Shown piece by piece: positions 20,976-60,239 of a stretch of 64,000 bases of DNA (positions are counted from its first letter, which is position 1; each line of letters begins with the position of its first letter). The notes beneath the pieces were generated by a model. It saw only the letters and a program-made list of their open reading frames with translations, had not been told where the DNA came from and did not search any database. The DNA lies in contig JASTWF010000088.1 in the NCBI GenBank assembly GCA_030390025.1, forward strand, positions 62,001-126,000. Direction: 5' to 3'. A program made the translations under genes and the position numbers. Origin of the DNA: Squalus acanthias (taxonomy: Eukaryota).

Positions 20976-23024
20976 TGTGAAGGAATAAGCCATAAAACCT
21001 ATTCAGAAAAATACACCATTCTATGAAAGAATTCTGGCCTTATTAAAACATGACAAACTGGGTTTGGAAATCTAAAAACCTAACAATGGAGAAGCTGTAT
21101 TGTTAACAGCATTCTGGCTGTGGGGATGGGATGGTTGTTGACAGTCAATGGCCTTGTTGAAACAGAAGGTTGGAGGCTCCTGATGGTCTGAATCTTTGGA
21201 AAGAAGACAATGGTGCATCCTGGTTAAGGTGTTCTAAGTTACACTTCGTAAAGAGGCACATAAAATTAAGAAACATGCCTTCGTAAAAATGACATCGTAA
21301 AAGAAACACCTGCTGTCACACCGTTTTTATGGTAAGCTTAGAACACCTATGGAGGAGAGACAATGAGTCTGTATTGCAACCAGCTGAGGTGACTAAGAAT
21401 TGCATAGATCACCCTGGTTGAGGTGTTCTAATTTACACTTCGTAAAGAGACACAAACAGAAGGCCTTAGTAAAAATGACATCAAATGAAATGCACCTGCT
21501 CTTACACCGTTTTTTATGGTAAGCTTCGAACACCTAGGGTGGAGACACGGGCCCAGAAATTCCAGTTGGAGGCTTCCCGCAGGCGCAAGCCCCCGACCTG
21601 CACTTAAGCGCGCCTACCGTTATGCTCTGGGCCCGCGCAGAATTCCGTTCCTGTGCCTGCTCCAGCTGCCGGTGCGCAGTGCTTGGGTATCGCAGGGGCG
21701 CAGCTAGTTCGCAGCGTCCCTGGGATCACGTGGGCCATGGGGAGCCAATCGGAGCAGGGAATCAAGACCTGTCAAATCTATGAATAGAGATCGGCCCCAA
21801 AACCTAAGTAAAACTTCAAATAAATGTGGGAAAAAAAATCACATTTTTAAAATAACTATAAATTACATAAATTAACTACTTTAAACAAAAATTTAAATTT
21901 TTGAAAAAAATAATTAAAGTTTTTAACAGAGCTAAAAATAAACTTACCTTTAAAGTATTTTAAAATGATAAACCTGTGGAAAAAATGTTTTACTTTCTTC
22001 ACCTCTTACCTTGTTAAAAGCAGGCCTTGCACCTGCTTTTTCCACGCGCAGCTGCTAGGGACTTACCCGCACTGCATCAACTCAGAAACAAAACGGCAGT
22101 TCGATGCGTACGCGCTGCCTCTTCGGCGCACGCGGTTGACCTGCGAACCCCTTCCTTCAAGAGAACGGAAGTTCCGGTTTCCAGCGCATGCGCGAAACCG
22201 GCACTTCCGTTGGCCCTACGTCTGAGTACACAGCGTGTACTCACCCATAGGGAACGAAATTTCATGGCCACGATTCTTAATGCTACCAGCTGAGATGAGT
22301 AAGAATTGCAGGGGTCAGCAGAAAAATGACGAGATAATTAGCTTACATCAGCAGAAAACCTTAAAGGAATACCACTGGAAAAGGGTATAAATATTGAGCT
22401 CTCAAATAGGATACTAGATTCGCTGTAAAGGGGCAAAGCGATTCTCAGGCTTCAGAGGCGGCTCTAAGTCTACAATTCTTTGTATCTCGGGGATCAAAGG
22501 TATTGTACTGTATTTGATTTTGGTGGATATCCTGAATAAAACGAAGAACTGTAAAACTCTAGCGAAGTTAAGATTTGAGAATAAGGATCTCTGATAAGAA
22601 TTGAAAGCTTTCTCTTTTTGGAACTGTTAATGTTGCGATTGACTCACCAACTGTAAAATACATGTCGGTTCTTCAATAAATCTATATATTTTTAGAATTG
22701 TCTCTCAATACTTCTGTATCAAACTCGCAAACTCAATCTCTGTACACTCTTTGGTGAGGAGTTGCAGAATTCTGGGGGAGTTTTCCGGACCCTCATAATA
22801 TCCGGAACGTTAGTCTAGCTAAACTTAGCTAAAAGTGCTATCTGGAGGATGATAACATTTTCAGGTTGTTCCTTTCCTTTAGGGATAGATAGTCCGGACC
22901 TTTAGACCCAATTAAGCGTCTTTAGGATTCGGCTACCTCAAACTTTAGTTGAAAGTGAATGTCTGGGGAATACGCCTGATTCGGGGTAGCCCTAAAGGGG
23001 CTAGGACTAGTAATTATCCCTTCA
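20976..23024 (+). mobile_element. Solo LTR (about 1.3 kb plus an inserted MITE) interrupting a LINE fragment
   Basis: Ends TGTGAAGGAATAA...TTATCCCTTCA; GTGT TSD (20972-20975 / 23025-23028); internal ~190-bp tandem duplication; TATAAA near 22384, AATAAA near 22535; the LINE resumes after it. Confidence 0.75.
21550..22269. mobile_element. Harbinger-type MITE, copy 1
   Basis: TIRs ggcccagaaatt / aatttcatggcc; ACG TSD; splits one repeat unit of the solo LTR. Confidence 0.8.
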
Positions 23025-26473: not shown

Positions 26474-27025
26474 TGTTGTGGAGAAAATTAGATTCTCAGA
26501 GTCTGTGTAAAGTCCAAAAACACATAGTTTATTGACAAAGTACTTTGGGAGAAGGAGTCAAAGGTCCCCGTGACCTAATGTAACCTCCTCTCATCTAACC
26601 TTTGGTTATTACGGCTTATATTCAGTATTTCTGGCTACATGCCATCATACATCGATTTCCATCCAATTACATTGCATTACATTAATCACCTGATTATATT
26701 TTGCCTTATTTATATTTATTTGGCAACAATCATAAAAGCAGTTACATCTTGTTATGCTTTTTTTGATCAAGGTTAATTTCACAATTTACTACTGTATGTT
26801 ATCTGTGATTGGCACCGTGCCTATGGTTTCTAGCTAACTTTGTAAAAGGCCTCTTTCAATACCTTCCAGTAGACACTGAATCCCACACTGAATCCTCCCC
26901 AAGAGTCTATTTGGCAGCTGTAGTCGTATCTATTCCTTATCTTGTTTTGCAAAACCTTCACTGCACATGGTTTTATTACGAATTCTGCAGAAATTGAATT
27001 TAACCATTTCAAATTAACCCTTTCA
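26474..27025 (-). repeat. ERV 3' LTR (552 bp)
   Basis: - strand TGAAAGGG...CAACA; AATAAA (tttatt at 26528); preceded by PPT aaacaggagggac (27026-27038). Confidence 0.95.
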
Positions 27026-27198: not shown

Positions 27199-28776
27199 TT
27201 ACATAAAAGTGCCATCTCCTTCCTCCTCCCATAGCAGCATCATGGGGGCCACTTTTGCTGCCCCCACAATTGATTGTTTACACACGCATTTTAATAGTAA
27301 TATTATAGAATACATAATCAAGATTACAATGAAGAACAAAATCAATCCTTGTGCTATTGATGTCCCCAACATCCCTAGCCACCTAGTTGCCCAGCTCCAG
27401 AGGGTAAGTGCTGGAGGTTGCTTTAATTTCTTTATCTCCTGTTGTATATGCTCAGCCAGATTAGTTATATTTTCTGAGTTGTCTGGAATGTAGGTACAAC
27501 ATTCTGACCCTATTATTGCGCACGTTCCTCCTTCTTTGGCCAGAAGGTAATCGAGGGCCATCCTATTCTGAAGGGTTACTGTTCTTAAAGCGACCATCTC
27601 CGCATTAACGTGTCTCAAAGCTTCGGCTGTGTCGTTGGCTACTTGCTCTAACACCGCCGCTATGTTAATAGATTCTCTTGCTAACTTCCCCGATCCATAC
27701 CAGGGGAAGGCAATAGCGAAGCACCTTTCGGTTTCTGTGATTGCTCTTTTCGTGCGCAAAGTTAGGGTTTTAGTAATTCGAGTATACGGGATTACATATC
27801 CCATGTAACATGACCCTGTCCAGGACTGGGGCAACCATGGATATGCCTTGTGGCCGCATATAAAATAGGTACCGTTATAGGCGGTGAGGGATTGTACTGT
27901 TTCGGGGCTCCATCTCTGTATGAAACTACTGCCACTATTGGTGAGATTTTTGAACGAGAGTCTGGAACTGTTGGCGTTCTTATTTAAGTTCCAAGACTGG
28001 GAGCAACGACTCCATCCCATCTCTGTCCCCTTTTCTCCTTTCTTTAGGTTCCTGATCATGCATATCGCTCCCTGGGGTCTACCTACCCCTGAGGTATTTG
28101 TTAACATCAAAGACGGGGGTGGTTGAGTACGATTGTATTTGGGCTGATACCACCCCTGGAAGGTGGTCAGGTTGTAACCTGACGATTGCCATTCCTTTTT
28201 ATCCCCACTCACATCCACCTTATAGGTCCCTCCTTTAGTTTGAGCTCCCATCCTGAGACCATTCCTGGAAGAGTTTTGATTTAAATACCATGCTGCCATC
28301 TCTGACTCATTAAACGGTATTGGTCTTAAAGGGATCCCTTCCTGTGCATGTATAGGAACGTGTACACATACCCAACATTTAGATACATTACTTCGTTTTG
28401 CATAAGTATAAGACATATACAGAAATGTGTTTACATTTAATTCTCGTTTCAATCATCTGTTTGATTTCTCTTTTTGATATTTCTGGGCTGTGGGACACCG
28501 TAAGTCAACTAGGCAAGGAGTATCCCCGCATGGGACAGTCCAATTACTCCTGCCAGTTATATAAGTTCTTGAACCTTTGGTAAGCCGGGCTGTAGTGTTG
28601 GTTTCTCGCTCCAGCCTCCACTCCTCTCCGTCTCTTTCATCAGAGGCTGGGCAGTAAATCGTATCTTGGTCACACAATCTTATTGGATCTTGTCTCCGAA
28701 GAAGGCACTTGTATTTCAACGAGGCAATGTCCGTAGCGCATATTGCGATTACACTAATACACATAAGCAATTTCAT
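27199..28776 (-). pseudogene. env: ERV env, about 525 codons, one in-frame TGA at 28453-28455
   Basis: Signal peptide MKLLMCISVIAICA, CWVC (CXXC), RTKR furin site, ISD LQNRMALDYLLA, CX6CC (CAIIGSECC) and TM helix; the two ORF-track pieces are in the same frame. Confidence 0.9.
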
Positions 28777-28879: not shown

Positions 28880-29161
28880 TTAGTTTGGTTCTCCGATCAC
28901 AACCATTTGGATTTCCTCCCTTACTACCGGTCGGAGTTGATGTTGGCGGGACTGTTCCCATACATACTTCAGGATATAACCTAAGGTGTATCCTATTAGA
29001 AAAATGCATATAGTCCAAACCAGCGCTTGTACCAGCGCCCATTCGGATTCTTTATACTGTCTGGCATACTCTTCACTTTCTGTGAACGGTATTTGTTCTG
29101 GTGTAGCCATTTCTATGTTTGTGAAGGGTTGTAGGCTTTTAACTGTGTCCAGTGCTTCCAT
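28880..29161 (-). CDS. Putative ERV accessory single-pass membrane protein (76-93 aa)
   Basis: ATGs at 29161 and 29110 in good Kozak context; hydrophobic WALVQALVWTICIFLIGYTLGYILKYVW; fills the pol-env gap. Confidence 0.55.
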   Translation of the reverse strand: MEALDTVKSLQPFTNIEMATPEQIPFTESEEYARQYKESEWALVQALVWTICIFLIGYTLGYILKYVWEQSRQHQLRPVVREEIQMVVIGEPN

Positions 29162-32100
29162 CGTCCCATGCCCTTTATATCAATGCAAGCACACGTATCT
29201 CCGCTGATAAGGATTTGATATGGCCCCGACCATTTAGGGGCAAATGTGATTCCTGGCTTCCCTGGCAAGCTTTTAACCATGACCTTAGTCCCTGCCGGGG
29301 GAACGTATGGAAGCGCAGTTAATTCCCAATCCTTGTCTTTCTCTTCCTGCCTTTCCCGAGTTTGTTGTCGCATCTCTTTTAACTGATTACTTAATTCCAA
29401 GACGTACCGGCGGAGTCTATCTTTTAAAGGTCCTACGTCCTCCCCTCCGGTTATTATACCGTGTGGAAGCCGCATTGCCCTTCCTGTCATTAGCTCATAT
29501 GGTGATAAGCCTGTGGTCCGGTTTGGAGTTGCTCTTAATTTCATTAACACGGTTGGTAGCATATCTACCCATCGTTGATGCTTTTCCCCTAATGCCTTAG
29601 CTAAGGCTGTTTTCAGGGTTCGATTCATTCTCTCCACCATCCCGGAACTCTGAGGATGGTAGGGGATATGAAACTTCTGTTTGATGCCCATCCATGCGCA
29701 TATCTGTTTAACTATGGCTCCTGTAAAGTGAGTGCCCTGATCTGAGTCAATTTGAATTGGTACTCCCCATCTGGGAATTATTTCCTCTGCCATTATTCGT
29801 GCTACAGTGGTGGCAGTGCAATTCCGGGTGGGGAACGCTTCGACCCACCTTGTGAATTGGTCTATAATCACCAGGCAGTACCTGCGTCCCCTTGAGGTGG
29901 GTAGTGGCCCAGTGAAGTCTATCTGCATGTTCTCCCATGGTCCCCTTGGTCTCGGCTGGTGGGCCATTCGTATCTTAACTGGCCGTCCCGGATTATGTTG
30001 GGCACACGTTATGCATCTCTGGCAATGTTTCGCCACATCTCTTCCCAACCCCGGCCACCACCATTCCTTGCCTATTAATTCAATCATTGATCCCCGCCCG
30101 GTATGGGCATTTCCATGATGTAATTCTAAGAGTAACTGCCTAATACAGGTAGGGGCTATCACCTTTCCCTCTTTTCGCCATATGGCCTCTCTATCCGGTC
30201 TCCCTCCTGCATGGTACCATTCCTGCCTTTCTCCTTCTGAGGTATCTTTGTGTAGTTTACTAATATTTATTTCTTCCACCTGAACACTGGCTACACTTTC
30301 TTCGATGGTCTCTTGTTCGAGAGCCTGTTGTGCAGCCAGGTCGGCTGCATGATTACCCTCCTGTTCTATACTCTGTATCTTTTGGTGCGCTTTTATTTTC
30401 ATTACTGCTGCCTGCGTTGGGGCTTTTGCCGCTTCTAGGAGGTCTTCTATACGTTGTTGGTGCTTAATATGATCCCCTCCTGTTGTTACGAATCCCCTCC
30501 TTCCCCAAGCTGTCATGTAATCATGTACTACCCCAAACGCATATCTACTATCTGTGTAGATGTTTACAGTTCTGTCTTTAGCTAATTCCAGGGCTTTCGT
30601 TAGGGCTACTATCTCTGCCACTTGTGCCGAGAGTCCCCCGTCTAACCTTCCAGATAACTCAGTTTCCAACTGGCCATTAACAACTGCCCACCCGGTTCGT
30701 GGTGTTCCGTTAATATACTTTCGGGATCCATCCACATAAAGGGTAAGCTGAGCTTCCTCCAGTAGTTCATCCTGTATTGGGCTACTATCAACTTCGTCAT
30801 CTACATCCGCACATTCATGGGGTTCTCCCATCCCTAGAATACCTTCTGCTGGGTTCTCCCCGGTGTCCCGAACGATTTTTACTGATTCATCTTTGGGTAT
30901 CAATACAGCTTCCCATCGCGCCCTACGCATGTTTGACACTGACCTCAATTTGTTGTTATTTAACATTTCTACCAACGTATGTTTGGTGTGCAGGGTGATA
31001 TCCCCGGTCATTACTGTGGGTTCGCTCACCCTCACAGCCCATGCTGCACAATCTAATGCTGCTACACACCGTGACAGCCCTGCAGCCACCGGTGACTGCT
31101 GGGTGGAATAGTATGCTACCGGTCGTTTTCTGTCTCCATGCTGCTGGGTAACGACTGCAGCATAGAATCCTCCCTCATTTTCACAGTGTATATGGAATGG
31201 CTTTTTCATATCGGGTAGCCCGAGTCCCGGGGCTGTTATCAATGCCTGTTTTAATTTTCCATATGCTTCCTGTTGCTCATGTCCCCATTCAATGAGGGTG
31301 TTACTGGGGTTTCCCCCTTTTACGAGCCTCTGAATCGGTTCCGCTATCGCTGCGAAATTAGGTATAAAGTTCCTACTATAATTAAAAAGACCCAGGACTT
31401 TTCGGACTCCTCTAACTGAGACCGGTCGAGGCATCTCTTGTATTGCCTTTCGACGGTCACTAGGCATTGTCCTGATCCCCTGGGATATTTGTTGTCCCAA
31501 GTAAGTAACAATGCTCTGTCCAATCTGAGCCTTCCTGGGGTTTACTTTAAATCCACCCTTTTCTAGTGCTTGTAGGATTACACCCAGGGCTGCAGCATGC
31601 CCCTTTTCATCCTCTGATGCTATTAACAGATCATCTACATATTGTAATTCAGTGCTACGATACGGGGAAAGATCTATAGGTTCTAATAATGAACTCATTA
31701 CCCGATGAAATATTGCTGGACTATTGTGGAATCCCTGTGGCAATCGGGTCCACGTGTACTGTTTATTCCCCACGGTGAAGGCGAACTTACTCTGGGACTC
31801 CGGGTCCAAGGGCAAGGACCAGAATCCGTTGGCTATGTCCAATACTGTGAATATTTTGTGCTCCATACTCAAACCGTTTAAAATAGTGGCCGGGCTGGCC
31901 ACTATTGGGTGTAATTTTGGAGTTACCTTATTTAGGGCTGTGTAGTCAATAGTCAATCGATATGACCCATCTGGCTTCTTTACTGGCCACGCAGGGGAAT
32001 TGGTTGTACTTTCTGTTGCCCTAATTATTCCTCTTTCCTCCAAATCCCGTACTATCTTTAACACAGCTTCCTGTGCTTCTGGCTTAATGGGATATTGTCT

Positions 32101-32658
32101 GTGTGATTTATGCTCCGGACCGGGAACTATGATAGGGTCCACCTCTGCCAACCCAGTATCCTGCTTTGAGACTGCCCACACTGTCTTGATGTTCTCACAT
32201 ATAGCCCCATACGTCCCGTCTTTCTGACTCCAGTCTCGTTTTAATGTTTTTGCACTCCCCACCTTAGCTAGGTGACCCAAAGGTTTTGTTAATCCTGTCT
32301 TGTTTCCGTCTGTTTGGGACCAAATTAATTTATTCAGTATTGGACTTACCAGTATATTATATTCTCTTAACAGATCTATTCCTAAAATAGTTCCTTCATT
32401 ATTGGGGCATACATAAAATTGCGCGGGGAGTAATCGTCCCGCTATCTCTAATACCTGCACTTCACTTTTATATGCAGAGATTCGTTCCCCTCCTAATCCT
32501 GATATATATATTTTGTGTTTGGTGACGGGAAGAGGCAGGTCCGTTATTGACACTGCTGCTCCCGTGTCTACCAGCATATCGCACTGCCGGCCCCCTATCA
32601 GCACTGGCACATAGACACGGTCGTCATGCTCCTCTCCTCCCGCGGGGGCCGCTGCTAG
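29113..32658 (-). CDS. pol: ERV pro-pol (PR-RT-RNase H-IN), uninterrupted and in frame with gag
   Basis: LVDTGA, LPQGF, YVDD, LYVDGS, HHCC zinc domain, DFTG/DSDQG/ERMN DDE triad, KWSGPY. Confidence 0.95.
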   Translation of the reverse strand, partial: LAAAPAGGEEHDDRVYVPVLIGGRQCDMLVDTGAAVSITDLPLPVTKHKIYISGLGGERISAYKSEVQVLEIAGRLLPAQFYVCPNNEGTILGIDLLREYNILVSPILNKLIWSQTDGNKTGLTKPLGHLAKVGSAKTLKRDWSQKDGTYGAICENIKTVWAVSKQDTGLAEVDPIIVPGPEHKSHRQYPIKPEAQEAVLKIVRDLEERGIIRATESTTNSPAWPVKKPDGSYRLTIDYTALNKVTPKLHPIVASPATILNGLSMEHKIFTVLDIANGFWSLPLDPESQSKFAFTVGNKQYTWTRLPQGFHNSPAIFHRVMSSLLEPIDLSPYRSTELQYVDDLLIASEDEKGHAAALGVILQALEKGGFKVNPRKAQIGQSIVTYLGQQISQGIRTMPSDRRKAIQEMPRPVSVRGVRKVLGLFNYSRNFIPNFAAIAEPIQRLVKGGNPSNTLIEWGHEQQEAYGKLKQALITAPGLGLPDMKKPFHIHCENEGGFYAAVVTQQHGDRKRPVAYYSTQQSPVAAGLSRCVAALDCAAWAVRVSEPTVMTGDITLHTKHTLVEMLNNNKLRSVSNMRRARWEAVLIPKDESVKIVRDTGENPAEGILGMGEPHECADVDDEVDSSPIQDELLEEAQLTLYVDGSRKYINGTPRTGWAVVNGQLETELSGRLDGGLSAQVAEIVALTKALELAKDRTVNIYTDSRYAFGVVHDYMTAWGRRGFVTTGGDHIKHQQRIEDLLEAAKAPTQAAVMKIKAHQKIQSIEQEGNHAADLAAQQALEQETIEESVASVQVEEINISKLHKDTSEGERQEWYHAGGRPDREAIWRKEGKVIAPTCIRQLLLELHHGNAHTGRGSMIELIGKEWWWPGLGRDVAKHCQRCITCAQHNPGRPVKIRMAHQPRPRGPWENMQIDFTGPLPTSRGRRYCLVIIDQFTRWVEAFPTRNCTATTVARIMAEEIIPRWGVPIQIDSDQGTHFTGAIVKQICAWMGIKQKFHIPYHPQSSGMVERMNRTLKTALAKALGEKHQRWVDMLPTVLMKLRATPNRTTGLSPYELMTGRAMRLPHGIITGGEDVGPLKDRLRRYVLELSNQLKEMRQQTRERQEEKDKDWELTALPYVPPAGTKVMVKSLPGKPGITFAPKWSGPYQILISGDTCACIDIKGMGRWKHWTQLKAYNPSQT

Positions 32659-34827
32659 TCAGCGGTCATTTCCCTGGTCCTTGACAAGTTGCAAAAACCT
32701 CTGATATTCTTCGGGGCTCAGTCTAGGACCCTGATTTCCCGACCCCATATTTTCCCGCTTTGGGCCCCAGCAGTTGTTGGCGCGGTGTCCCGGCTTGCCG
32801 CAATTACCGCAAGTCGGGATACTTTGTTTGGGACTCCTACACTCCTTAGCCATATGTCCCATCTTCCCACAATTGAAACACGCCCCTCTCTTTGGCTGGG
32901 AGTTTCTTTGCTGAACTCCGACTGCTCCCACCTTTTCTTGTTTAATAACCTTTCCTCGCTCTCCTTCTGTTCCATCTATCTGACAAGCCCATTTAACTAC
33001 CGCATCGTAAGTGTCAGCCGTAACTACCCCCATTTTTAGTATCTTTTGGTGTTCTGAGGACAGACGATCTTTGTACATTTTTACAAATACCGGGTCGTCC
33101 CTTTGGGGGTTTTCCTGTCCCGAGGATTCCTGATATTGGTACCAGAGCCATTCCCCATACGAATTTGAATTTTCTCCCTTCTTCTGTTGTATCTGCATTA
33201 TTAAACCCCAATTTGGTGACGCAGCCCCCATCGTTTCCTGGACCGCTCTCTTGAACTCACTCCTCATTGTGTCCCGATTGGCTTGGGTTTCACTTGCTGT
33301 TGGACACCAAGTGCCATTTCGGAAATTATCTGGTAATGCATTCCACTTGTCTCTTGGGCACGTGGCACGAACTATCTGGTGGACATCCCTTTCATGCATA
33401 TTATGTATATCGTATAATTCTTCCAATTTTTCCCAAAATTCCACATTTCGTTTTCTTGGCTGTAATGTTCCCAAATCTTGATTTATCATTTGTTTTTCGG
33501 CGGGGGTAAATGCCTGATACCTAATTCTTGCGGCACGAGGACTACCTCCCACAGTCCGTATTATGGGTGCTGCCTTTTTAGTGATTGGCCCAAAAATTCG
33601 TGAGGAAGCCTTCGTGCGAGGGTAAGGCTTCCCCGCGATCTCTCTCTGCGCGTTGGCTTTTTCAGTCCCAGCTCACACGAACTTGATGTTCTGGACAGCA
33701 GCTGTGCAGGGCATCCGTATCCCACAGGCGCAGTTAGTTCGTGCGAGCTGTGGGATCACGTGACTCAGTTAGAGCCAATGGCAGCACACCATCTTTCATT
33801 CATAGCTTTCACATAAGTGCTGTGAAAGCTATGAATACTATACCCCCCCAAAAGAACAGCTAAACCTCAATTAAATTTAAAAAAAAACCATCACATTAAT
33901 AAAATAAGTATAGTTAAATAAATTAACTATTTTAAACAAAAAATTAAATTTTTGAAAAAATTTAAAATCTTTTAAAAAGTTATAAAAATAAACTTACCTG
34001 TCTTTAAAGTCTCTAAAAAAGATATACCTGTTAAAAAAAATTCAAAAAAATACTTAATTAACTACTTACCTTGTTAAAAGAGGGTCTTACGCCTCTTTTT
34101 TTTATGTGTAAAATCTTCCATACTTACCTGCGCGTTCAAAGCACTAAGTGCACTGCGTGCGCGCAGCCTGTAGTGCGCACACGGTTCACTTAGGAACCGC
34201 CCCCTTTTGCATTCACCAAGTGCCGGTTTTCAGCGCATGCGCAGTGCATGCAGAAAACCGGCAATTGGAGAAAGAATACGCGAGAGTACACAGTGCGTAC
34301 TCTCGCGTATCAACACTAATTTTTGGGCCATTATCTTTTCATCTTCATCATCCCCTTCGCTAAAATTATCTACCGGGGGTGCCGAAGCTGATACGGCATA
34401 TGGGGGGGGGGGGTATGTCATTTTCCTCACCATATCTTCTAACCCCCGCGCCAGCACTCAAGCCTGCCTGTTGTTCATTCCAGAGTTCACTTTTATCCAT
34501 TCTATATCCATCCTTTAATTTCTGTCCTGTCCTTAAGTATTCATTCTCCTGTTGTAGCTCTAAGATTTTCTCATTGTGTCTCATCAAGCCCACATGTAGA
34601 TCTCGCACCTTCCTGGTCACTACGACCAGTTGGTGTACCAAGATCACTCCTGCTTTCTTAATCTTTTTCTGTTTCTGTCTCATCCACCACTCCCTCTGAG
34701 TGACAGGTGACTGGAGCGGATCCCATCCGTCCTTAATCATCTTTTCCACCATACCCTTCCGGTCATCTGCATAGAACCTAGTAAGGGACCCCTCTGGCCC
34801 CCAGTCTAGTCCTTTCCCCGATGCCAT
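32659..34827 (-). pseudogene. gag: ERV gag, 473 aa after removing the MITE and one G from the G12 run
   Basis: PPPY late domain, MHR-like QIQQKKGENSNSY and two CCHC knuckles; the frame is restored across the MITE. Confidence 0.9.
33587..34329. mobile_element. Harbinger-type MITE, copy 2, inserted in gag
   Basis: TIRs ggcccaaaaatt / aatttttgggcc; ATT TSD. Confidence 0.9.
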
Positions 34828-35519
34828 CTATAGTCCGACATCAGTCCTCCACTGCGTCCCTCTAATCGGGCTGGTCTAGGAAACCTAGTCTGACGTCAGT
34901 CTTACCCTACTTCTGCTGCGTCTCGCTAGGCGACAGAGTCTCCTTTGAATAAAAAGTTCATGACACTTTGGTTACTCAATCACACCTCTGACTTTGCCTC
35001 CCGGAGTGCTTTGGAGCCTCTACGCCTACTTTATGGTCCTGGCCTTCACGTGGGGCATTTGCCCTCTTAATAACCGGCCTGAGGCTAGGCATATGAGACA
35101 GGCACTCCCCTTGTCCGCTGGGCTTAATCAGGTCTTACCCTTCTCGGCATATATCGCTACAACAGTTCTGCCTTAATTACTTTATATCATTCAAATGTCC
35201 TCAAATTGTGTACTCTTACTTTCATTCAATCCACACACTCAGTTAATCCTGGCCTTCGTGTGGGGCATTTGCCATCTTAACAACCAGCTCAGGCTGAGTG
35301 TGCCTTATTCAACATCCACAGTCACCATTTACTCACTTTCTCTCTCTCTCTCTTTCTCACATCTACTTACTGTGTGTTTTTCACTTCCCACAGCTCTTTC
35401 TCATTCGGAATGCTACGATGCTGTTACTCCGCGTTCCCAGATGACACAATTTTTGGACGGTCAAAATTTTGACTGCTCGTCCGAGTTCACTGGTACAAAC
35501 GGTCTGTCAACCTCGCAGC

Positions 35520-35537
35520 ACCCTGCTCGCAGCGCCA
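35520..35537 (-). promoter_or_regulatory. Primer-binding site, tRNA-Ser-like
   Basis: TGGCGCTGCGAGCAGGGT 3 nt after the 5' LTR; complementary to ACCCTGCTCGCAGCGCCA, close to the vertebrate tRNA-Ser 3' end as recalled. Confidence 0.8.
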
Positions 35538-35540
35538 AAT

Positions 35541-36093
35541 TGTTGTGGAGAAAATTAGATTCTCAGAGTCTGTGTAAAGTCCAAAAACACATAGTTTATT
35601 GACAAAGTACTTTGGGAGAAGGAGTCAAAGGTCCCCGTGACCTAATGTAACCTCCTCTCATCTAACCTTTGGTTATTACGGCTTATATTCAGTATTTCTG
35701 GCTACATGCCATCATACATCGATTTCCATCCAATTACATTGCATTACATTAATCACCTGATTATATTTTTGCCTTATTTATATTTATTTGGCAACAATCA
35801 TAAAAGCAGTTACATCTTGTTATGCTTTTTTTGATCAAGGTTAATTTCACAATTTACTACTGTATGTTATCTGTGATTGGCACCGTGCCTATGGTTTCTA
35901 GCTAACTTTGTAAAAGGCCTCTTTCAATACCTTCCAGTAGACACTGAATCCCACACTGAATCCTCCCCAAGAGTCTATTTGGCAGCTGTAGTCGTATCTA
36001 TTCCTTATCTTGTTTTGCAAAACCTTCACTGCACATGGTTTTATTATGAATTCTGCAGAAATTGAATTTAACCATTTCAAATTAACCCTTTCA
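35541..36093 (-). repeat. ERV 5' LTR (553 bp)
   Basis: Same as 26474-27025 except one T indel and one C/T change seen by eye. Confidence 0.95.
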
Positions 36094-39241: not shown

Positions 39242-40913
39242 TTAGAACTGCAGTCTGATGAGGTGGTCATGGACTGCCCTTCCGGAAGGCCAATTGAGTG
39301 GCTGCCTCCTCCCTCGCTCCTGTTCCTCCTCCTCCTGCTCCATGTCCTCCTCATCTTCCTCTACCACCTCCTCATCCTGCTTCTCTACCTTTTCCTCCTC
39401 CTGAGGTGGTCCCACAATCCCTGCTGGCAAGGGCTGGGCCCACATGATGACCAAGTTGTGGAGCATGCAGCAGACCATCACAAAATGGGACACCCGCTCA
39501 GCCGAGTACTGGAGGGCTCCTCCCAAGTGGTCAAGGCAGCAGAACCGTTGCTTGAGCACCTCGATGGTCTGCTCAATGATGTTCCTGGTGGCGGTATGGC
39601 TCTCATTATATGATTGCTGAGTAGGAGTGTTGGGGTTGCGGAGGGGAGTCATGAGCCAGGTGGAGAGCGGATAGCCCTTGTCTCTGACCAGCTAGCCGCA
39701 AGCTTGATGTGGTGGCTGGAAGAGTGCTGGCACACCAGTCTGGCGAAGGATGAAGGCATCGTGGCTGCTGCCAGGTTAGCTGTCTGTGGTTGCACACACA
39801 CTCCACATTAAGTGAGTGGTAGCCTTTGCGGTTATGGAAGATCTGAGGGTTGTTATGCGGTGCCCGCAAAGCCACATGGGTGCAGTCAATGGCACCCTGC
39901 ACCATGGGGAAGCCCGCTATCCTGGCAAAGCCACATGCACATTTGTCCTGCTTCTCTCTGGTGATGGGGAAGGAAATGTCGTCCCTTCTCCTACTGTAGA
40001 GAGCCTCTGTGACCTCCGGGATGCAGCGATGGACGGTGAACTGCGAGATGTTAGCTATATCTCCTGTTGCAGACTGGAAGGATCTGGTGGTGAAGAAATC
40101 GAGGGCGACGATGACCTTGACTGCCACTGAAAGAGCTGTGGTCACCCTGATCTGAGGCTCAAGGTCTGGTTGCAGGAGGTGGCAGAGTTCTGTGACCACC
40201 TCCTTGCTGAAGCGGAGCCTTCTAATACACTGCTCCTGGCTTAATTGGAGGTAGGAGAAGTGCTGTCGGAATACCCTCGGAGGGTAAGGCCTTCTGTTGA
40301 GAGCCCTGATGGCCCTCCTCCTCCCTCTGACCACATGTTCCAATCTTTCTCGCTGCCTCCGCTCCCTCTGCCGTAGATCCTGGAGGGTGAGGTCGACTGT
40401 CAGTACAGCCCCCATTAATGTAACCAAGTGTAGCACTTTGATATATTGTGAGAATAAATGTAACTAATTTTTAGTAGCCACAACACTCCAGAGACTAAAC
40501 AACCTTTAAATGATTGCATTCAACTGTTGCACAATGTGAAACTGACACGGAAGCAGTGAAACAGCACGAACTTGAGAGCTGCAACTCATGATCCCTTTAA
40601 GTAGCGCTCCTGGAGCTGGCTACCGACTGCTTCATGCCTCCTCTCCCTGTTGCTGCCGGGGCGAGGCGCTAAGGCAGGGGGGCGACAATGAATTTTGCAG
40701 ATCGGGCGCCCAGTGAACATTGCACGCTCACTGACGTCACGATCTGCCTGGTGCTAAAGCCCCAGGCGCTAACTGTTAGTGGCAGCACTAAGGGGCGACT
40801 GGATTTGACGTGCAGCGCTGGATTCGCCTCGCCCCGGTACTACTGCATCAGCGCACCATTAGCGCCCCTGTCAGGTGCTAATGGGAGGAGCTAACCAACT
40901 GAATTTTTCCCCC
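39242..40913 (-). mobile_element. Harbinger transposon A, decayed HARBI1-like transposase
   Basis: GFPMVQGAIDCTHV, NRKGYHSLN and [16 protein letters not shown], frameshifted; terminal gggggaaaaatt at about 40902-40913. Confidence 0.85.
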
Positions 40914-41112
40914 TTGAATTCTTAAAACTGCTGGATCTCTTGCTATGCCATTAACCTCCATACAGTCTGGGAAACCGTGGTCCCCTGTTTATAAGAAAAA
41001 AAACAACAGAGAATCCACTGTGGCTCTACTTAAGAGCCCAAGGGGTTAATTTGTCAAATCATACTTTCCTTCTGTCACCATGGGGAAATATCCACTTAAA
41101 TTAAGAAACTTA

Positions 41113-44100
41113 GGGGGAGAAATTGGGTACCTTAGCGCCTCCCGTCACTTGCCGGTTTGCGGCGACACTAACTACTACCGTCACGCCCTCCTGCAGCCGG
41201 AGATCGTAACGTCATCCAGCCGCGCATCACCCCGGTAACGCCCCGGACCGGAAATTCATTCTCGACCCCTGCCTCAGCACCTGCCATTAGGAACGGCAAG
41301 TAGAGGAGGCAGTTTGCAGTCAGCTGGAAGCTGCAGGAGTGCTATTTAAAGGAGTGAACTTTCAGGTTTTTTTAAGTCAGCAAACAATGCTGCCTTGTCA
41401 CTTTGACAGAAGCAGACAGGTGTTTTGACCCATTTGAGGTTTTCCTACTTGAAGGAGTTTTGCTCCAGACAAAAATTTATCAGGTTCATTTGTCTTACTT
41501 TTGATACTGCAACATTTCCAACACTTAATGAGGGCTGTATTGGCACGGGACCTCGCCCTCCAGCGTCACCGTCGGAGGCGGAGAGAAAGATTGGAAAACA
41601 TGGCCAGAGAGAGGAGGGCCAACAGGGCTCTCAACGGGAGACCTTACCCTCCCAGGGTATTCCGGGAGCAGTTCTCCTACAGTCATCTGTCAGAGGAGCA
41701 GTGCCTTAGTGGGCTCCGCTTCAGCAAGGAGGTGGTCACAGAGCTCTGCCACCTCCTGCAGCCGGAGCTCCAGCCTCAGCTCAGGACAAGGACGTCTCTC
41801 TCAGTGGCAGTTAAGGTCACAGTCGCTCTCAATTTCGACGCCAGCGGCTCCTTCCAGGCTTCAACAGGGGATACTGCAAACATTTCACAGTTCGCCGTCC
41901 ATTGCTGCATCCGGGAGGTAACAGACGCTCTCTACAGAAGGAGAAGGGAGTACATATCATTCCCCATCACCAGAGAGAAGCAAGATGAATGCTCATGTGG
42001 CTTTGCAAGAATAGCGGGCTTCCCCATGGTTCAGGGCGCCATTGACTGCACCCACGTGGCATTGCGGCACCTCATCACAATGCAGAGGTGTTCCGCAAAC
42101 ACAAAGGCTACCACTCTCTGAACATGCAGTTGGTGTGCGACCACAGACAGCTCATCCTCGCCGTCAATGCCCGCTATCCTGGCTGCAGCCACGATGCATT
42201 CATCCTGCGATAGTCCCAGCACTGTTCCACCCACCACATGAATCTCATGGCTGGCTGCTCAGAGACAAGGGTTATCCATTCACCACCTGGCTGATGACAC
42301 CCCTCCGCAACCCCAACACTCCTGCTCAGCACGCATACAATGAGAGCCATAGTGCCACCAGGAACCTGATCGAACAGACTATCAGGGTGCTAAAGCAATG
42401 GTTCCGCTGCCTTGACCGCTCTGGAAGAGCCCTGCAGTACTCCCCAATCGAGTCTCCCTTTTCATCGTTGTGTGCTGTATGCTGCACAACCTGGCCATTC
42501 TGAGGGCCCAGCCATTGCCATCAGGGATTGCAGGTCCACCTCAGGAGGCGGAAGAGGGAGAGGAGGAGGAGGTGGAGGATGAAGAGCAGCAGCAACGTAG
42601 GAGGGAGCCACTCAATCTTGCTTCTGTTCATAATCGCCTCATAACACAGCGCTTCCAATAAATGAGATAGCACATGGCATTTGCGCAGCACAACCACATC
42701 ATTACAGACAGCTCGCAGCCCCTATCACCGGGCAAAGGTCAAATGAGAAACATATCAAAATTTGCTACGTCGAAATAAACATTTATTATTCTGCACAACT
42801 CTCTCTTATCAAACACAACCAATAATAAACAAACACAACAATTTATCAACAAACACAACTGGTTCTTAGCAAACGGAACTTATTTCTTACCAAACTGAAC
42901 AATATATTTACAAACACATCAATTTATTTACACATACTCCCCCATTTGCTGTTAACATATTGGCCCAGAAATTAGACTTCGATGGTTGCCGCAGGGGTAA
43001 GGATCCGGCGCGATCCTACCTACCGCGCCTGCCTTTATGTTTCGGGCCCACACGAACTTCTGGTCCTGGGCCTCACCCTGGTGCCGGCGCGCAGTGTGTG
43101 CGTGTCCCAGAGGCGCAGTTAGTTCGATGCGACCTCTGGGATCACGTGGGCCATGGAGAGCCAATGGCAGCACACCATCTTTCATTCATAGATTTGACAG
43201 GAGAACTGTCAAAACTATGAATACAAATTGCCCCCAAAAGAACAGCTAAACCTCAAATAAATTTTAAAAAACCCATCACATTAATAAAATAACTATAGTT
43301 AAATAAATTAACCCCTTTAAACAAAAATTTAAATTTTTGAAAAAATTTAAATTCTTTTTAAAAGTTATAAAAATAAATTTACCTTTCTTTAAAGTCTCTA
43401 AAAAAGATAAACCTGTTGAAAAAAATTTAAAATACTTAATTAACTACTTACCTTGTTAAAAGGGGGTCTTACGCCTCCTTTCTTCATGTGTAAAATCTTC
43501 AATACTTACCCCTCGCGTTGAAACCTGAAAAAATACCTAAGTGTGCTGCGTGCGCACAGCCTGTAGTGCGCATGCGGTTCACTTAGGAACCGCCCCCTTA
43601 GCAATACCGGAAGTGCCGGTTTCCCGCGCATGCGCAGTGCATGCAGGAAACCGGCACTTCGGGACCGAATACGCAAGAGTACACAGTTCGTACTCTCCCG
43701 TATTCAGCCGAAGTTTTGGGCCATTATTTACTGGGCCTTCCTCAATTGATTCCCTCCCTTTTGCACTTCCCCCCTCTCAACCCTACTGCTCCTCCGTAAT
43801 GTGGCCCCAGTAGCTGCAGCAAGGCTGGTCGAAGGCTGCTGAGTCTGGGAGCCAGAGACTGCAGATGGCCTTGCAGGATGCCCTTGACCAGCTCTGGGCC
43901 TGGAAGGCCCGGCTGCAGACTGCACCAACTCTGCATGGGTGGCAGCAGTCTGGGCTGGCTGGGTTACAGGCTGCGGCAAGTGCAATGACGGATTGGCAGT
44001 GGTGGGAACAGGAATGCTGTGATCCTGAGAGAGGACAGCACCTTCCTGCTCGACCGACACACTGCCACACCCCCAGGGAAGAACCACAACATCTGGAGCA

Positions 44101-49803: not shown

Positions 49804-49906
49804 ATGCGGAGATGCCGGTGTTGGACTGGGGTGGACAAATGTGAGAAGTGGCACAACACCAGGTTATAGTCCAACAGCTTTATTTGAAATCACAAGCTTT
49901 CGGAGC
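49804..49906 (-). mobile_element. Terminal segment of a Penelope-type repeat (the Tx1 target), cut within its hammerhead motif
   Basis: - strand gctcc-GAAA-GCTT-gtgatttcaaataaagctgttggactataacctggtgttg...cagtccaacaccggcatc. Confidence 0.6.
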
Positions 49907-50883
49907 TGCTGACTGAGGAGCAGAAGCAGCAGAGTGGTGGTCTCTGTGGCCAGGAAGAGGAGAAGGAGAAGGAGACCAGACAGCAGACCACCACCAACAA
50001 CCAACAACTACAACTGAGGTGCCTGGAGAGAGAGGACAGGAGAGGAGAGGAGAAAGAAAAGGGAAGGCCAAGGCCATCAACAACAGAGGAGAGGCCTTTC
50101 CACACTGCCTCCTCAATTGGCCTCCATTTTAGGAGAGGGAGAGAGGGGAGAAAACAACACAACATCCATCATCTGTTTGGAAGGAGGAAGAAGGAAGGAA
50201 AGAACAGCTACAGGTGGGTGTGATTCTGGGGCACTCTCCCAGAGACTTTGTTTTGTAGGTGGGGGGAGGAAAGAAGAAAAAGAAGAAGGCCGGAACATCC
50301 AAGGGGTGTGTGTGTGTGTGTGTGGCTTCTGTAAAAGCTAGGCCGCACACACCATATTAAACACCCCTTTCCCATTGCCTGACCTGGGGCAGCTGGAGCT
50401 GCCTAGGTGAAGTTCCCCAATTAATTATATCCAATTGGGCATCGTTAAGACCTGGTGCAGGACTGAGCCTGGGCATCTCCAGCTATCCCAGGTGAAGACA
50501 TCTTCTCCCCCCACCAGAAGACCACCACCAAAGACTTTTTTACATCGGAGAGTGCACCCCCCTGCCAACACCCACCCACCCACCATCCTGAGTGGCGACC
50601 CTGCCCTTGCGGCTTCCCTCCTTCCCACCCCCCTCTCTCTCTCTCTCTCTTTGTCTCTTGTCTCTCTCTGCCTCTCTCTCTCTAAGAGGCACCTCATCTA
50701 TTTTTAATTAAGTACCCATTGAGCAGAGGGGAGAAGGCCCCTCTCCCAATTCAATCAACTAAAGGGAGAGGTGTGCCTTCAATTTAAGAGCTCCCTCTGC
50801 TCAGGGAAAAAAAAAAACCGAGGCCATTAACACCTTCAGGCCTGTGACTTGGGGTGAGTGTAGCCCTTAAAGAACCCTCCATT

Positions 50884-53041
50884 ATGGCGAGTACATCTTC
50901 GTCGGTGGCGGGGGCAGCGAGGACGTACGCGAGCGTGGCAGCCGCGGCCACGGCCGCAGCCACGAGTCCTCCTGTTACCCCGTCACCTTTTACCCTCCTT
51001 ACGAGGAAGAATGGGGTCAAGAGCTACACTCACCCCAACATGACTATAGAGGCGTGCGTTAAAGCCATGGCTGGGGTTGTCGGCCCTTCAGCCATCGTCG
51101 CCGCCTCTAAAATGTACGGCAAGGCTGTGTTCTTCCTGGGGTCGGAGCGGGCGGTGTCCCTGGCCATCGAGAAGGGGCTCACCGTGGGCGGGACCTTCCT
51201 GCCGGTGGACCCCCTTGAGGCCACCGCGCAAAGGATTGTGGTTTCCAACGTCCCGCCCTTTGTTCCGGGTGAGCTCCTCCTCCCCCACCTACGTCAACTG
51301 GGGGAGGTGAGGTCGGGGATCACACCCATCCCGCTCGGCTTCCGGGAAGCCAGCCTTCGGCACGTCTTCTCCTTCCGGCGCCAGCTTTTCGTCCGGCTGG
51401 CGCGGGAGGAGGACGCGGACGGCGCGTTCACGGTGCTCCACGGGGGGACCGCCCACCGCGTCTTCTGGACCTCGGACGGCGTGCGGTGCTACGCCTGTAA
51501 GGAGGTGGGGCACGTCCGCAAAAACTGCCCCGCCTCCAAGGCCGCCACGACACCTGGCGCGGCCGGGGTTGGCGCCGCCGCCCCCCCTCCCCCTGATACT
51601 GTCCGCGCGTCGACGGCGACGGATGCGCGGTCGAAATCGGAGGCCAACTCCACCACGGCCTCCGGCGGGGAGGAGGGAGAGCGTCCGGGGGGAAGGAAGG
51701 CGCGTAGGAAAAATAAACACATAAGGGCGGATCCCCTCGCGGAGGAAACATCTGAATTGGCCGAACTCACGCCCGAGTATATCGCGGAGTTGGTCGGGAC
51801 GCATGAGACTGGGGGGATCCTCGTGCCCGGGCCCGTGACCGTGACCGCAACTGCTAAGGCAGCTGAATCAAGACCTGCGGCCGGGCTCGGGCCCGAGGGG
51901 CCCAAGAAACCCAGTCGTCGGAAAGGGGCAGAGAGGGAGGCCCCAGCAGACATGGAGGCCTCCCCCTCTCCGGGCCCCAATTTGTTAAAAAGAAAGCTCC
52001 GCCCCCAGCAGGAGGACTGCGAGGAGGAAGGTCCCTCCGCAAAAGGGGGGCAGTCGCCCGCCGCGGGTGCTGCGCCCCACCCCACCACCGTCATCGTCGC
52101 GCGCGATCGGCAGGGGTCGTCTGTCCCTCGGGAGGGTGAGGCAGCCGAGTCTGTCCGACCTGTGCCTCCCGGGGATGGGGAAGAGACCCTGCCCGTGGGG
52201 GGGGGCGCGGAACAACCCGCGGAAGAAAATGTAGAAACTGAACCGTTGCTCCTCGCCGGGTCGGGCGTCCTGGGGACTGGGGCGGGCGAGGCCAAAGAGG
52301 CTGAAGCCAAGCCCGCCTTTTATAACCCAGACATCTCCCAGGGACTGCTCGACCTGGTGGAGGAGTGTAGCAATCCCCAGCCCGCTGGGTCGGAGGTTGG
52401 TGGCGGGGAGACGGAAAGCCCCCTGACTCCGTCTCTGTTGTTGGCGCCGGACGTGCTGGAGGAATTTGGGATTATTTTCTCCCCGGTTTCTCCGGTCGCC
52501 CCGGCGCCTGAGGCGGGGGGGGGGCCCCGAACCGCCGCCGCCGCCTCCCGGCCCGGCGCCCCTGAAGGAGCCCAGGGTGGACTCCTCTGCCACCGATCCT
52601 GGGGGTGGGATCGTGACGGAGGCGGGGCCGGCCGGTGCGGCCGAGCCGTTCGCTGCACCCTGTGTGACGGACGGGTTGGCCGCCGGTGACGACCTCCCGG
52701 AGGAGGACGGGGACTCGGTGGGGGGCGCTGAGGAAGATTTGGAGTCCATCAGCAGCGAGGCGATGGACGCCCTCGTGCCCTTCACCGACTCTCCCCTCAT
52801 CCCCGTAGGGGAACTCCGGGATTTTATGGCCGTGAGCCAGGGTCGTCACAAGAAGATCCGGCTGGCCCTCGACAAGTGGTCGGAGCTGACGCTGCTCGTC
52901 GTGTCCGTCCGCGCCGCCGTTAAAATCATGGGCGCGGACAAGGACGTTGACCGGCTCGAGCTGCGTCGGCTCAAGACGTTCCACACTGGGCTGCTGAGGG
53001 AGTGGCGGTCGTCAGTGACCGCCCTCCCTCCCCTCCGTTAG
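50884..53041 (+). CDS. Tx1 ORF1 (CCHC knuckle), about 718 aa, with a +1 G in the run at 52515-52524
   Basis: IVAASKMYGKAVFFL, SNVPPF, SFRRQ and CYACKEVGHVRKNC. Confidence 0.85.
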
Positions 53042-53066
53042 GTAGAGGTTGCACTATGCTTCTGAG

Positions 53067-56000
53067 ATGAAGATAACCATAGCCAGCCTCAACATCAACG
53101 GCAGCAGGGAGGCGCGCCGTAGATTCAATAACTTCTCGGTCCTTCGGGATGGGAAATATGCGGTGTGCTTCCTGCAAGAAACCCACACCGTTCCGGGAGA
53201 CGAGGCCACGTGGCTCCTGGAGTGGCAAGGAGGGGTCAGCATGAGTCACCTCTCCAACAATTCCTGCGGGGTGGCTGTCTTGCTGGCCCCGCTTTTTCAG
53301 CCGGAGATCTTGAGGGTCAAGGAGCACGTGCCGGGCCGCTTGCTCCAGGTCACTGTTCGCCTGGGAGGCGTGCCGCTCCATTTAGTGAACGTGTACGCCC
53401 CCCGGACCGGTGCGCAGCAAGTGCGCTTCTTCGGAGAAGTGTCCGCTCTTCTGGGCTCCATCGACGTGGGCGAGTGCGTCATCCTCGGGGGGGATTTCAA
53501 TTGTACCCTCGAGGCGCGGGACCGGTCGGGTCCCCCGCGAAGCCCGGCGGCGATGGAGAAGTTGCGGGACCTGGTCGGGTCCTTCGACTTGGTGGACGTC
53601 TGGCGAAATCTCCATCCCGACTCCAGCGCCTTCACGAGCGTGAGGTCTGGAGGAGGAAGGTCCAGAATCGACCGCCTTTACATTTCCCGGGCGTACGTCT
53701 CCTGCGTTCCGGCGGCTTCCATGCGGCCGGTGCCGTGCACGGACCACCACCTGGTGTGGGCGGAGCTCGCTCCGCTGCGCGCGCGGGGGGGGTCCGCGTA
53801 CTGGCATTTTAACAACCTGCTGCTGGAGGACGCGCGGTTCCGGGATTCGTTTCGCCGGTTCTGGGCCGACTGGAGAAGGAAGCGGGGAGGCTTCCCCTCC
53901 TTGAGGCTATGGTGGGACGTGGGCAAGGCTCACGTCCGCGTCTTCTGTCAGGAGTACGCGAAGGGGTCGACCAAGAGGCGGGAGGCCCGGGTCGGGCGAT
54001 TGGAGAAAGAAGTGCTCGACCTGGAGTCCCGTCTCGGTCAAGTCGTCGAGGACCCGGCCCTGCGGAAGGTGTACGAAGAGAAGAAGGGCGCGCTGAAGGA
54101 CCTGCAGCTGGTCGGGTCCCGAGGCGCGTACGTGAGGTCGCGGATCCAGCTCCTGCGGGACCTGGACCGCGGCTCCCCCTTCTTCTACTCGCTGGAAAAA
54201 AGACGGGGGGTCCGTAAGCAGCTCTTGGAGCTGCTGGCCGACGACGGATCTCTGGTCTCGGATCCGGAGGGCATCAGCGCGGAGGCCCGGGCCTATTACG
54301 GGGCTCTGTTCTCTTCGGATCCGTCCAGCGAGGATGCGCGCAGAGTTTTGTGGGAGGACCTGCCGAAGGTCGGCCCGGAGGGCGCCGAGAATCTAGAAGC
54401 TCCGCTAAGCCTGGCGGAGCTGACCGGCGCCCTGCGCCAGCTCTCGAGGGGCAAGTCCCCGGGGCTGGACGGGCTGACCGTGGAGTTCCACAGGGCGTTC
54501 TGGGACGTCTTGGGGGACGACTACGCGCGGGTCCTGGGGGAAAGTCTGGCGACCGGGGAGATGCCCCTCTCTTGGCGCAGGGCGGTCATCGTCCTGCTGC
54601 CCAAGAAGGGCGATCTCCGCCTACTTAAGAACTGGCGCCCGGTCTCCCTCCTCAGCACGGACTACAAAATTTTCGCCAGGGCTATGTCTGCTCGCCTTGG
54701 CACCGTGCTGGCCCGCATGATCCACCCCGACCAGTCCTACACGGTCCCGGGCCGGAGTATCCACGATAACATCCATCTGGTCCGGGACCTGGTCCACCAT
54801 TCCCAGAGGGCTGGTCTGTCGGTCGCCTTCCTTTCCCTGGATCAGGAGAAGGCGTTCGACAGGGTGGATCACGAGTATCTTTTCGGGACTCTGCGCGCGT
54901 TCGGGTTCGGGACGCATTTCGTCGCCCGGATCCGACTTCTGTACGCCGCCGCGGAGTGTCTGATTAAAGTTAACGGGTCTTTGACGGCGCCCCTTCGCTT
55001 CGGGAGGGGGGTGCGTCAGGGATGCCCCATGTCCGGTCAGTTATACGCCGTTTGCGTGGAGCCTTTCCTGCGCCTCTTGCGGAAGAGGTTGACGGGACTG
55101 GCTCTGCAAGGGCCGGGCGTGGAGGTGGTCCTCTCGGCTTACGCCGATGACGTGCTCCTCGCGGTCACGGATCCCGTCGACTTGCGGAGGATGCGAGAAT
55201 GCCAGCAGATTTACTCGGACGCATCCTCCGCCAAGATCAACTGGGAGAAATGTTCTGGACTCCTGGTGGGCCCATGGCGGGTGGACTCCCTGCCGGAGGA
55301 GTTCGGGCCTTTCGCCTGGAGCACCACGCACCTCCTCTACCTGGGAGTCTACCTCAGCCCGGCCGAGGACGCCTGGCCGGCGAACTGGCAAGAGCTGGAG
55401 GCCAAAGTCACCGCTCGCCTAGGACGCTGGACAGGACTGCTCCGAGTGTTGTCCTACAGGGGTCGAGCGCTGGTCATAAACCAGCTGGTGGCCGCCATGT
55501 TGTGGTACCGGTTGGTCACTTTGATCCCTCCCCCTGCGTTTGTCGCCAAGATGCAGAAGAAGCTCGTCGACTTCTTCTGGGACAAAAGGAAGCACTGGGT
55601 CTCTGCCGCGGTTTTGAGTCTCCCGCTTAGGGAGGGCGGTCAGGCGCTGGTGTGCCTTCGCACCCAGGCGGCGACTTTCCGTCTTCAGACGCTGCAGAGA
55701 TACCTGTACGTGGAGAATCCTCCTAGGTGGCGTGCGCTGGCGACGTATTTCTTCCGCCAGCTGCACGGCCTCAATTACGACACGCAGCTCCTGTTTGTGA
55801 GAGTGGGTGGCACGCGTGCCAGCCTGCGGGAGCTGCCTGTCTTCTACCAGGAACTGCTATGGGTTTGGAACAGCGTCGCCTCCGAGCGCAGTTCTCCCCC
55901 GTCAGGAGCGGCGGCCGTCCTTCGGGAGCCGCTGTTCAGGAATCCGCACCTCCACGACCGCGGGTTCGGCTGGCTGGCGGAGGGCAGGGCTGTGCCCGGT

Positions 56001-60214: not shown

Positions 60215-60239
60215 GTAGAGGTTGCACTATGCTTCTGAG

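Follow-up and report, generated by a model that had tools for sequence, protein, structure and literature searches.

Does the UGA that interrupts the reading frame between gag and pol in an endogenous retrovirus (ERV) of Squalus acanthias record damage to one copy, or is it a leaky stop through which the parent virus made its Gag-Pol protein? The window, which is the whole stretch of DNA analyzed here, comprises 64,000 nucleotides of contig JASTWF010000088.1 (assembly GCA_030390025.1, positions 62,001 to 126,000, forward strand). It holds a complete provirus of ~9.6 kb on the minus strand, from 36093 to 26474, recognized from its sequence, its open reading frames (ORFs) and Pfam domains. The answer favored here, with a probability of roughly 75%, is that the junction TGA was the parent virus's programmed leaky stop, driven by the CUAG that follows it and probably aided by an RNA stem downstream. 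The parts that meet at the junction are the following.

32662..33672, minus strand: 3' part of gag, with the capsid region, two CCHC zinc knuckles and a short helix-like C-terminal tail (337-codon ORF, Pfam zf-CCHC)
32655..32661, minus strand: gag stop and its context, UGA-CUAG, with the TGA at 32661-32659 (read from the sequence)
29113..32658, minus strand: pro-pol, encoding protease, reverse transcriptase (RT, with YVDD), tether, RNase H and integrase (1181 open codons, ending in TAG)

On the minus strand the junction reads AAT GAC CGC TGA CTA GCA GCG GCC CCC GCG GGA, and the context following the stop is UGA-CUAGCAGC. The TGA at 32661-32659 terminates the 337-codon gag frame (33672-32662), and the next 1181 codons of the same frame (32658-29113) are open and encode protease, RT, RNase H and integrase. 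It is the sole stop in the 1519 codons from 33672 to 29116. The LVDTGA active site of the protease lies 29 residues past it. The letters given in the initial annotation, TGA followed by CTAG and a frame without stops into LVDTGA, are confirmed. The motif is uncommon in its surroundings: CTAG follows 4 of the 2024 TGA triplets in the window when both strands are counted and CTA follows 21 of them, and on the sense strand of the provirus CTAG follows a single TGA among 158, namely the one at the junction. Elsewhere in pol, 4 of 1150 codon pairs have CTA in frame with G as the next letter. Allowing for several known leaky motifs, the post-hoc chance of meeting one at the junction is perhaps ~1% by the authors' estimate.

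Two elements of a type II UGA-CUA(G) readthrough signal are present: UGA followed by CUA and a G at +7, and a long zero-frame ORF downstream. AQP4 is a mammalian example of readthrough at UGA-CUA(G). According to the available passages of a 2026 review (PMC13517186), UGACUAG gives readthrough of at least about 1.3% in human genes, UGACUA is the context of Sindbis and chikungunya viruses, and a C at +8 and an A at +9 raise readthrough; both nucleotides occur at the provirus junction. The first 70-nt segment past the stop has a GC content of 0.69 (mean 0.47), the highest of 696 such segments along pol, which bears out the GC-rich tract seen in the initial annotation.

Evidence on the age of the stop comes from related proteins. 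The capsid region is matched by 43 of the 178 stored proteins examined; of these 43, 16 have at least two CCHC motifs, 9 have one and 18 have none. Relatives with at least two motifs, which include proteins of sturgeon, eel and sea turtles, mostly end without a protease (13 of 16), and 12 of those 13 stop 39-60 residues past the start of the last CCHC; the corresponding distance in the provirus Gag is 50. Three pairs in this count are cluster sisters, which reduces it to about 9 of 10 independent cases, and one match is weak. Many related Gags also finish in a short helix-like tail similar to that of the provirus Gag. The stop is taken to be ancestral because related Gags end at the same place, and the junction TGA is very likely the true gag end of the parent virus, as judged from these protein comparisons.

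The other 3 of the 16 continue past the Gag end. The stored protein P0258 matches residues 60-399 of P0257 at 100% identity and terminates there, while P0257 reads on in frame via Gln400 into a protease with its active site 29 residues further on. That distance equals the one in the provirus, and the two junctions are therefore homologous and in frame. Records P0257, P0258 and P0096 present one relative in two forms, a Gag that stops and a Gag-Pol in which Gln occupies the stop site; the difference reflects either the genetic code chosen by the gene caller or a real variant. A Heterodontus gene model, P0005, fuses Gag to RT and omits the protease, as would be expected with a stop at that place. 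A Gag search at near lengths returned 2 zinc-knuckle-only matches among 553 candidates, and a Gag-profile search for longer fused proteins returned 2 unrelated matches among 6592.

RNA folding predicts two mutually exclusive structures around the stop.

32588..32651, minus strand: predicted 64-nt stem-loop, 7 nt past the stop (RNA folding)
32649..32665, minus strand: rival 6-bp hairpin, pairing -4..+2 with +8..+13 (RNA folding)

The basal stem of the predicted stem-loop consists of 8 bp, all of them G-C, between +11..+18 (32651-32644) and +67..+74 (32595-32588). The G run of its predicted 3' arm codes for the di-glycine of the protease, and this arm includes codons that are rare in pol (GGC for 6 of 91 Gly and CGG for 11 of 71 Arg). 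The 70-nt segment after the stop has a folding energy of -32.3 kcal/mol (mean -13.4), the lowest of the 696 along pol; as stable a fold is reached by 8 of 200 shuffles for 72 nt and by 4 of 300 for +8..+157. The rival hairpin encloses the end of the stop together with CUAG and is incompatible with the base of the 3' stem. Its pair probabilities are 0.85-0.93 in a 250-nt context, and 32 of 200 shuffles are as stable. A ribosome at the stop would mask the 5' arm of this hairpin, which would favor the 3' stem. An enumeration limited to perfect stems of at least 4 bp starting at +8..+16 yielded no candidate for an H-type pseudoknot, and a scan of the provirus with Rfam gave 3 matches, all far below gathering scores and none at the junction. 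As a folding prediction, the 3' stem-loop is plausible rather than established. The downstream helper stem that the initial annotation had suggested thus has a predicted counterpart at +11..+74, in the most stable segment, with weak support from shuffling.

Several observations weigh against a programmed, stem-aided leaky stop. The ends of the predicted Gags are possibly due to contig ends. The Gln in P0257 suggests that this relative has a different stop codon or a sense codon at the site, and that UGA-CUAG is not family-wide. In a Mobula protein, P0086 (38% identity), no stop separates Gag from protease; this protein ends abnormally soon past the junction and the copy looks decayed. Stray copies were sought in two scans of bacterial genome contigs, which gave 3 and 65 pattern matches, none confirmed. 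The GC content at third codon positions is 0.64 in the first 25 codons past the stop, a value matched by 86 of 1156 codon segments. The fold of the 100 nt downstream, proposed in the initial annotation as a check, is not significant, with 23 of 200 shuffles as stable; the count for 200 nt is 21 of 200, with z of -1.4 for both, and for +8..+107 it is 118 of 300. Folds of 62-75 nt are equaled by 2-11 of 300 shuffles, but these lengths were picked after the fold was known. When 50 nt upstream are included, the fold is dominated by the 6-bp hairpin across the stop, together with other pairings. The decay of the copy itself, with two gag lesions and an in-frame TGA in env, also counts against it.

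Under the proposed mechanism, most ribosomes reaching the UGA would release Gag, and a few percent would decode it as an amino acid, yielding Gag-Pol. A near-cognate tRNA, with Arg, Cys or Trp as the usual insertions at UGA, would compete with the release factor in the CUAG context, which would drive the readthrough. The arriving ribosome would melt the hairpin over the stop, so that +11..+13 could pair at the base of the 3' stem, by the mRNA entry channel, and the stem-loop 7 nt downstream would probably help by raising basal readthrough toward the level that a retrovirus needs. For comparison, passages of PMC13517186 give MoMLV a readthrough of 2.5-12%, list Arg, Cys or Trp as the usual decoding of UGA, and describe downstream structure as only conditionally needed for UGACUA. 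The present copy can no longer act in this way: gag is broken upstream, and ribosomes starting at the gag AUG therefore stop at 34366 and would not reach the junction. The junction in this copy is a record of the parent virus's strategy and not a working site. UGA suppression, by which the initial annotation had Gag-Pol being made, accordingly holds as the best-supported reading for the parent virus and fails for the copy at hand.

The favored reading has to be weighed against four others, of which the nearest accepts real readthrough, attributes it to the heptamer alone and treats the GC-rich stem-loop as incidental. It has a genuine chance, short of even: shuffling lends the stem no significance at 100 or 200 nt, competing pairings prevail in longer contexts, and the review passages make structure conditional for UGACUA (PMC13517186). 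Against this, the post-stop segment ranks first among the 696 in pol for both GC content and stability, the stem begins at +11, near the +9 to +13 starts of the chikungunya and MoMLV elements (PMC13517186, available passages), and the rare codons GGC and CGG sit in its 3' arm. Quite improbable is a nonsense mutation that arose after or shortly before integration in a parent with a fused Gag-Pol or another gag stop. The copy does carry other lesions, including the in-frame TGA in env, and Mobula P0086 lacks a stop between Gag and protease. However, the TGA sits where related Gags end, at the same 29-residue distance to the protease as in P0257/P0258; it is the sole stop in 1519 codons of a provirus whose long terminal repeats (LTRs) differ at just two positions; its CTAG context is rare; and a virus without a stop here would have no free Gag. 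A post-insertion stop, an alternative that the initial annotation had itself raised, is unlikely on this protein-level evidence.

A shade less probable still is a Pol expressed independently of Gag, by way of a spliced mRNA or a start codon of its own as in foamy viruses, with the UGA as an ordinary stop. The RT does fall outside the class I clade, foamy viruses do have a separate pol start (passages of PMC8278194), and several splice-donor-like sites can be seen by eye in the leader. The first in-frame AUG past the stop, however, is at +85, inside the protease and beyond its N-terminal strands, and upstream of the six AG dinucleotides that occur from the stop to +35 the pyrimidine fractions are just 0.20-0.53. 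In addition, foamy pol lies in another frame, whereas the provirus pol shares the gag frame; the shared frame and the +85 AUG led to rejection of foamy-type pol expression. Least credible of all is a bypass of the stop by frameshifting, or the reading of UGA as selenocysteine. Slippery-type heptamers do occur at 32740 and 32674, in phase with gag, but the frame of pol is the zero frame, and a shift by -1 at 32674 leads straight to a stop; for selenocysteine, Rfam shows no selenocysteine insertion (SECIS) element in the provirus at E up to 5 and no match at the junction. A programmed leaky UGA thus remains the preferred reading of the junction.

The remaining features of the provirus are the following.

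35541..36093, minus strand: 5' LTR (TG...CA), preceded by the AAAGG duplication
35520..35537, minus strand: primer-binding site, following the 5' LTR, probably for tRNA-Ser
34366..34827, minus strand: 5' part of gag, 153 codons from the AUG, shifted in frame at a C run (near 34410) and ended by TAA
33716..34334, no strand assigned: repeat insertion with internal palindromes that splits gag (true ends slightly wider, about 33680-34335)
28880..29110, minus strand: 76-codon ORF that lies between pol and env and has a hydrophobic stretch (read from the sequence)
27199..28776, minus strand: env, gamma-type (TLV_coat, immunosuppressive domain, CX6CC), with an in-frame TGA at 28455-28453
26474..27025, minus strand: 3' LTR (TG...CA), with a purine-rich tract before it and AAAGG after it

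The gene order is gag, pro-pol (protease, RT with YVDD, RNase H, integrase), the 76-codon hydrophobic ORF and gamma-type env. The LTRs (553 and 552 bp, TG...CA) are 99.6% identical, their differences being one substitution and one gap, and a 5-bp target-site duplication, AAAGG, lies on both flanks; from the near-identity of the LTRs the insertion is concluded to be young. The copy is defective, with two gag lesions (the C-run frame shift and the ~620-660 bp repeat insertion) and the in-frame TGA in env, and its pol is fully open. The env TGA (28453-28455, minus strand) lies ~107 codons past the start of the signal peptide in the context AGA-TGA-TTG, which matches no known leaky motif, and is taken as a lesion. 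The 5' part of gag shares 50% identity over 58 amino acids with the N-terminus of the Heterodontus P0005 Gag, and the 3' part shares 39% with the same protein. The 64-kb window contains no second copy of the provirus, and no tRNA genes for comparison with the primer-binding site. In the ESM Atlas, Gag finds general retroviral Gag clusters at 0.87-0.91; a PDB search found distant RT and integrase relatives only.

The gag insert is 85% identical to 43101-43727 and 74% to 21769-22041 in the window, so that its nearest copy in the window is only 85% alike whereas the LTRs are 99.6% identical. Either the insert stems from a younger copy at another site, or a genome that was defective beforehand was copied in trans. 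Three strong palindromes and splice-donor-like sites lie within the insert, whose ends look Harbinger-like by eye. The leader of ~700 nt has a 50-bp repeat at 86% identity (35037-35086 and 35247-35295) as well as the several splice-donor-like sites. The 76-codon ORF (28880-29110), which begins directly past the pol stop and has a transmembrane-like stretch, could be an accessory gene; it had no usable match in the ESM Atlas. SnRV presumably has a small ORF between pol and env as well.

The nearest Pol belongs to a cluster with a member from Mustelus asterias (66% over 914 residues). An RT tree was built from 34 rows, P0257 (too short) and P0173 (no match) having been dropped from the 35 candidate rows; it has neither an SnRV row nor named references. 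In it the provirus groups with the Mustelus asterias cluster (96/95) and then, with weaker support, with Heterodontus and Pimephales elements, and it falls outside a 16-row clade of Gag_p30-bearing class I matches with a split of 99/99. Membership in class I (gamma/epsilon-like) was rejected on that split. By eye, the RT motifs resemble those of SnRV and of two ray-finned fish ERV groups in a published alignment (PMC10435555, in the part available), and the provirus has the SnRV-like traits of an in-frame gag-pol with a stop and of a gamma-type env transmembrane (TM) subunit. The element is probably SnRV-like by these comparisons. Also by eye, its env (27199-28452) resembles the env of elephant shark CmiERV scaffold 2 far more than the two pol genes resemble each other, which may reflect env exchange among shark retroviruses.

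Elsewhere in the window, the plus strand from 49854 to 64000 contains two head-to-tail copies of a GC-rich long interspersed nuclear element (LINE), ~7.17 kb apart and 96-100% alike. The LINE has a zinc-knuckle ORF1 and an endonuclease-RT ORF2, the latter open over 1306 codons in the first copy and broken in the second. A CT repeat precedes each copy, which suggests a target preference. Large inverted repeats at 39504-42442 surround a remnant of a DDE_Tnp_4 (Harbinger-type) transposase.

The site is a short candidate that places the best-studied cellular leaky-stop motif, with a predicted stem, at a retroviral junction. If the favored reading is true, type II readthrough extends to Retroviridae, and a TGA of this kind should not be annotated as an inactivating lesion. 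Three things limit the surprise: UGA junctions have precedents, a published bullfrog ERV has this heptamer as well, without remark, and the present copy is defective. What is new is modest, namely the CUAG context and the predicted stem-loop at a retroviral junction. A broader interpretation is tentative, with the odds somewhat against it. In this interpretation a shark-and-fish lineage outside class I would set its Gag:Gag-Pol ratio by a full alphavirus-type cassette (UGA-CUAG and a 3' stem-loop, with the rival hairpin as a switch), and class III-type retroviruses would have reached UGA-CUAG at least twice, swapping UAG, UGA-CAG, UGA-CAUG and UGA-CUAG at one homologous site. Full-text searching, which covered few subscription papers and no bioRxiv supplements, turned up no publication that identifies UGA-CUAG as a signal between retroviral gag and pol, though it may have been mentioned before. 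The available portions of the 2026 review include no UGACUA junction among the retroviral junctions listed; they describe retroviral readthrough as measured in gammaretroviruses only, and the cis-elements as unclear in epsilonretroviruses and in unclassified retroviruses of fish and frogs (PMC13517186). The passages of PMC8278194 and PMC4422223 seen here make no remark on UGA-CAG, UGA-CUAG or UGA-CAUG junctions.

Among retroviruses, the contrast drawn in the initial annotation with a 'retroviral UAG' was overstated. The review passages list UGA at the gag-pol junctions of SSSV (UGAAGA), ZFERV (UGACGA) and a cane toad ERV (UGAAGU), and UAGGGC in SnRV, which differs from the UGA-CUAG of the provirus (PMC13517186). 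Like the provirus, the first three have an in-frame UGA between gag and pro, aquatic hosts and a readthrough that is inferred. Unlike it, none has CUA after the stop, and they are called distant relatives of epsilonretroviruses, whereas the provirus RT lies outside class I. XtERV-S also has a TGA at its gag-pol junction (PMC8278194, in part), and the supplement sequences of XtERV-S and XlERV-S from that paper, read by eye, give an in-frame UGA-CAG. With these two class III elements and the Pyxicephalus adspersus ERV, the provirus shares an in-frame TGA, a class III-type pol, a gamma-type env TM and a 5-bp duplication. The XtERV-S group differs in that it is related to ERV-L, has a dUTPase-like segment and lacks a distinguishable nucleocapsid in Gag, whereas the provirus has two CCHC knuckles and no dUTPase match. 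CmiERV scaffold 2, whose env is clearly similar to the provirus env by eye, has an in-frame UGA-CAUG junction, also by eye, and is assigned in the available text to lineage I, which clusters with SnRV (PMC4422223). In a defective bullfrog class III ERV (PMC8278194, supplementary file 5), UGA-CUAG itself is found by eye at the gag end; on its sequence this ERV would be an independent case of the heptamer.

The type III signal of MoMLV (UAG-GGR, an 8-nt purine-rich spacer and an H-type pseudoknot) occupies the same genome position as the provirus junction, and in its stem 2 a post-stop C run pairs with a G run coding for the protease di-glycine (PMC13517186, available passages), as is predicted in the provirus. 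The provirus differs in having UGA rather than UAG, a spacer that is not purine-rich, and no H-type pseudoknot with perfect stems. A gammaretroviral type III signal was rejected on the UGA-CUAGCAGC context, with no UAG-GGR and no purine-rich 8-nt spacer. A further likeness is to the type II signals of Sindbis and chikungunya viruses and of the human genes OPRL1 and MDH1, which have the same UGA-CUAG in the passages of PMC13517186. In the alphaviruses, as predicted here, an extended stem-loop begins at ~+11 and a polymerase gene follows in frame. Their stem-loops span 126-177 nt, against the predicted 64 nt of the provirus, whose site is a retroviral gag-pro junction.

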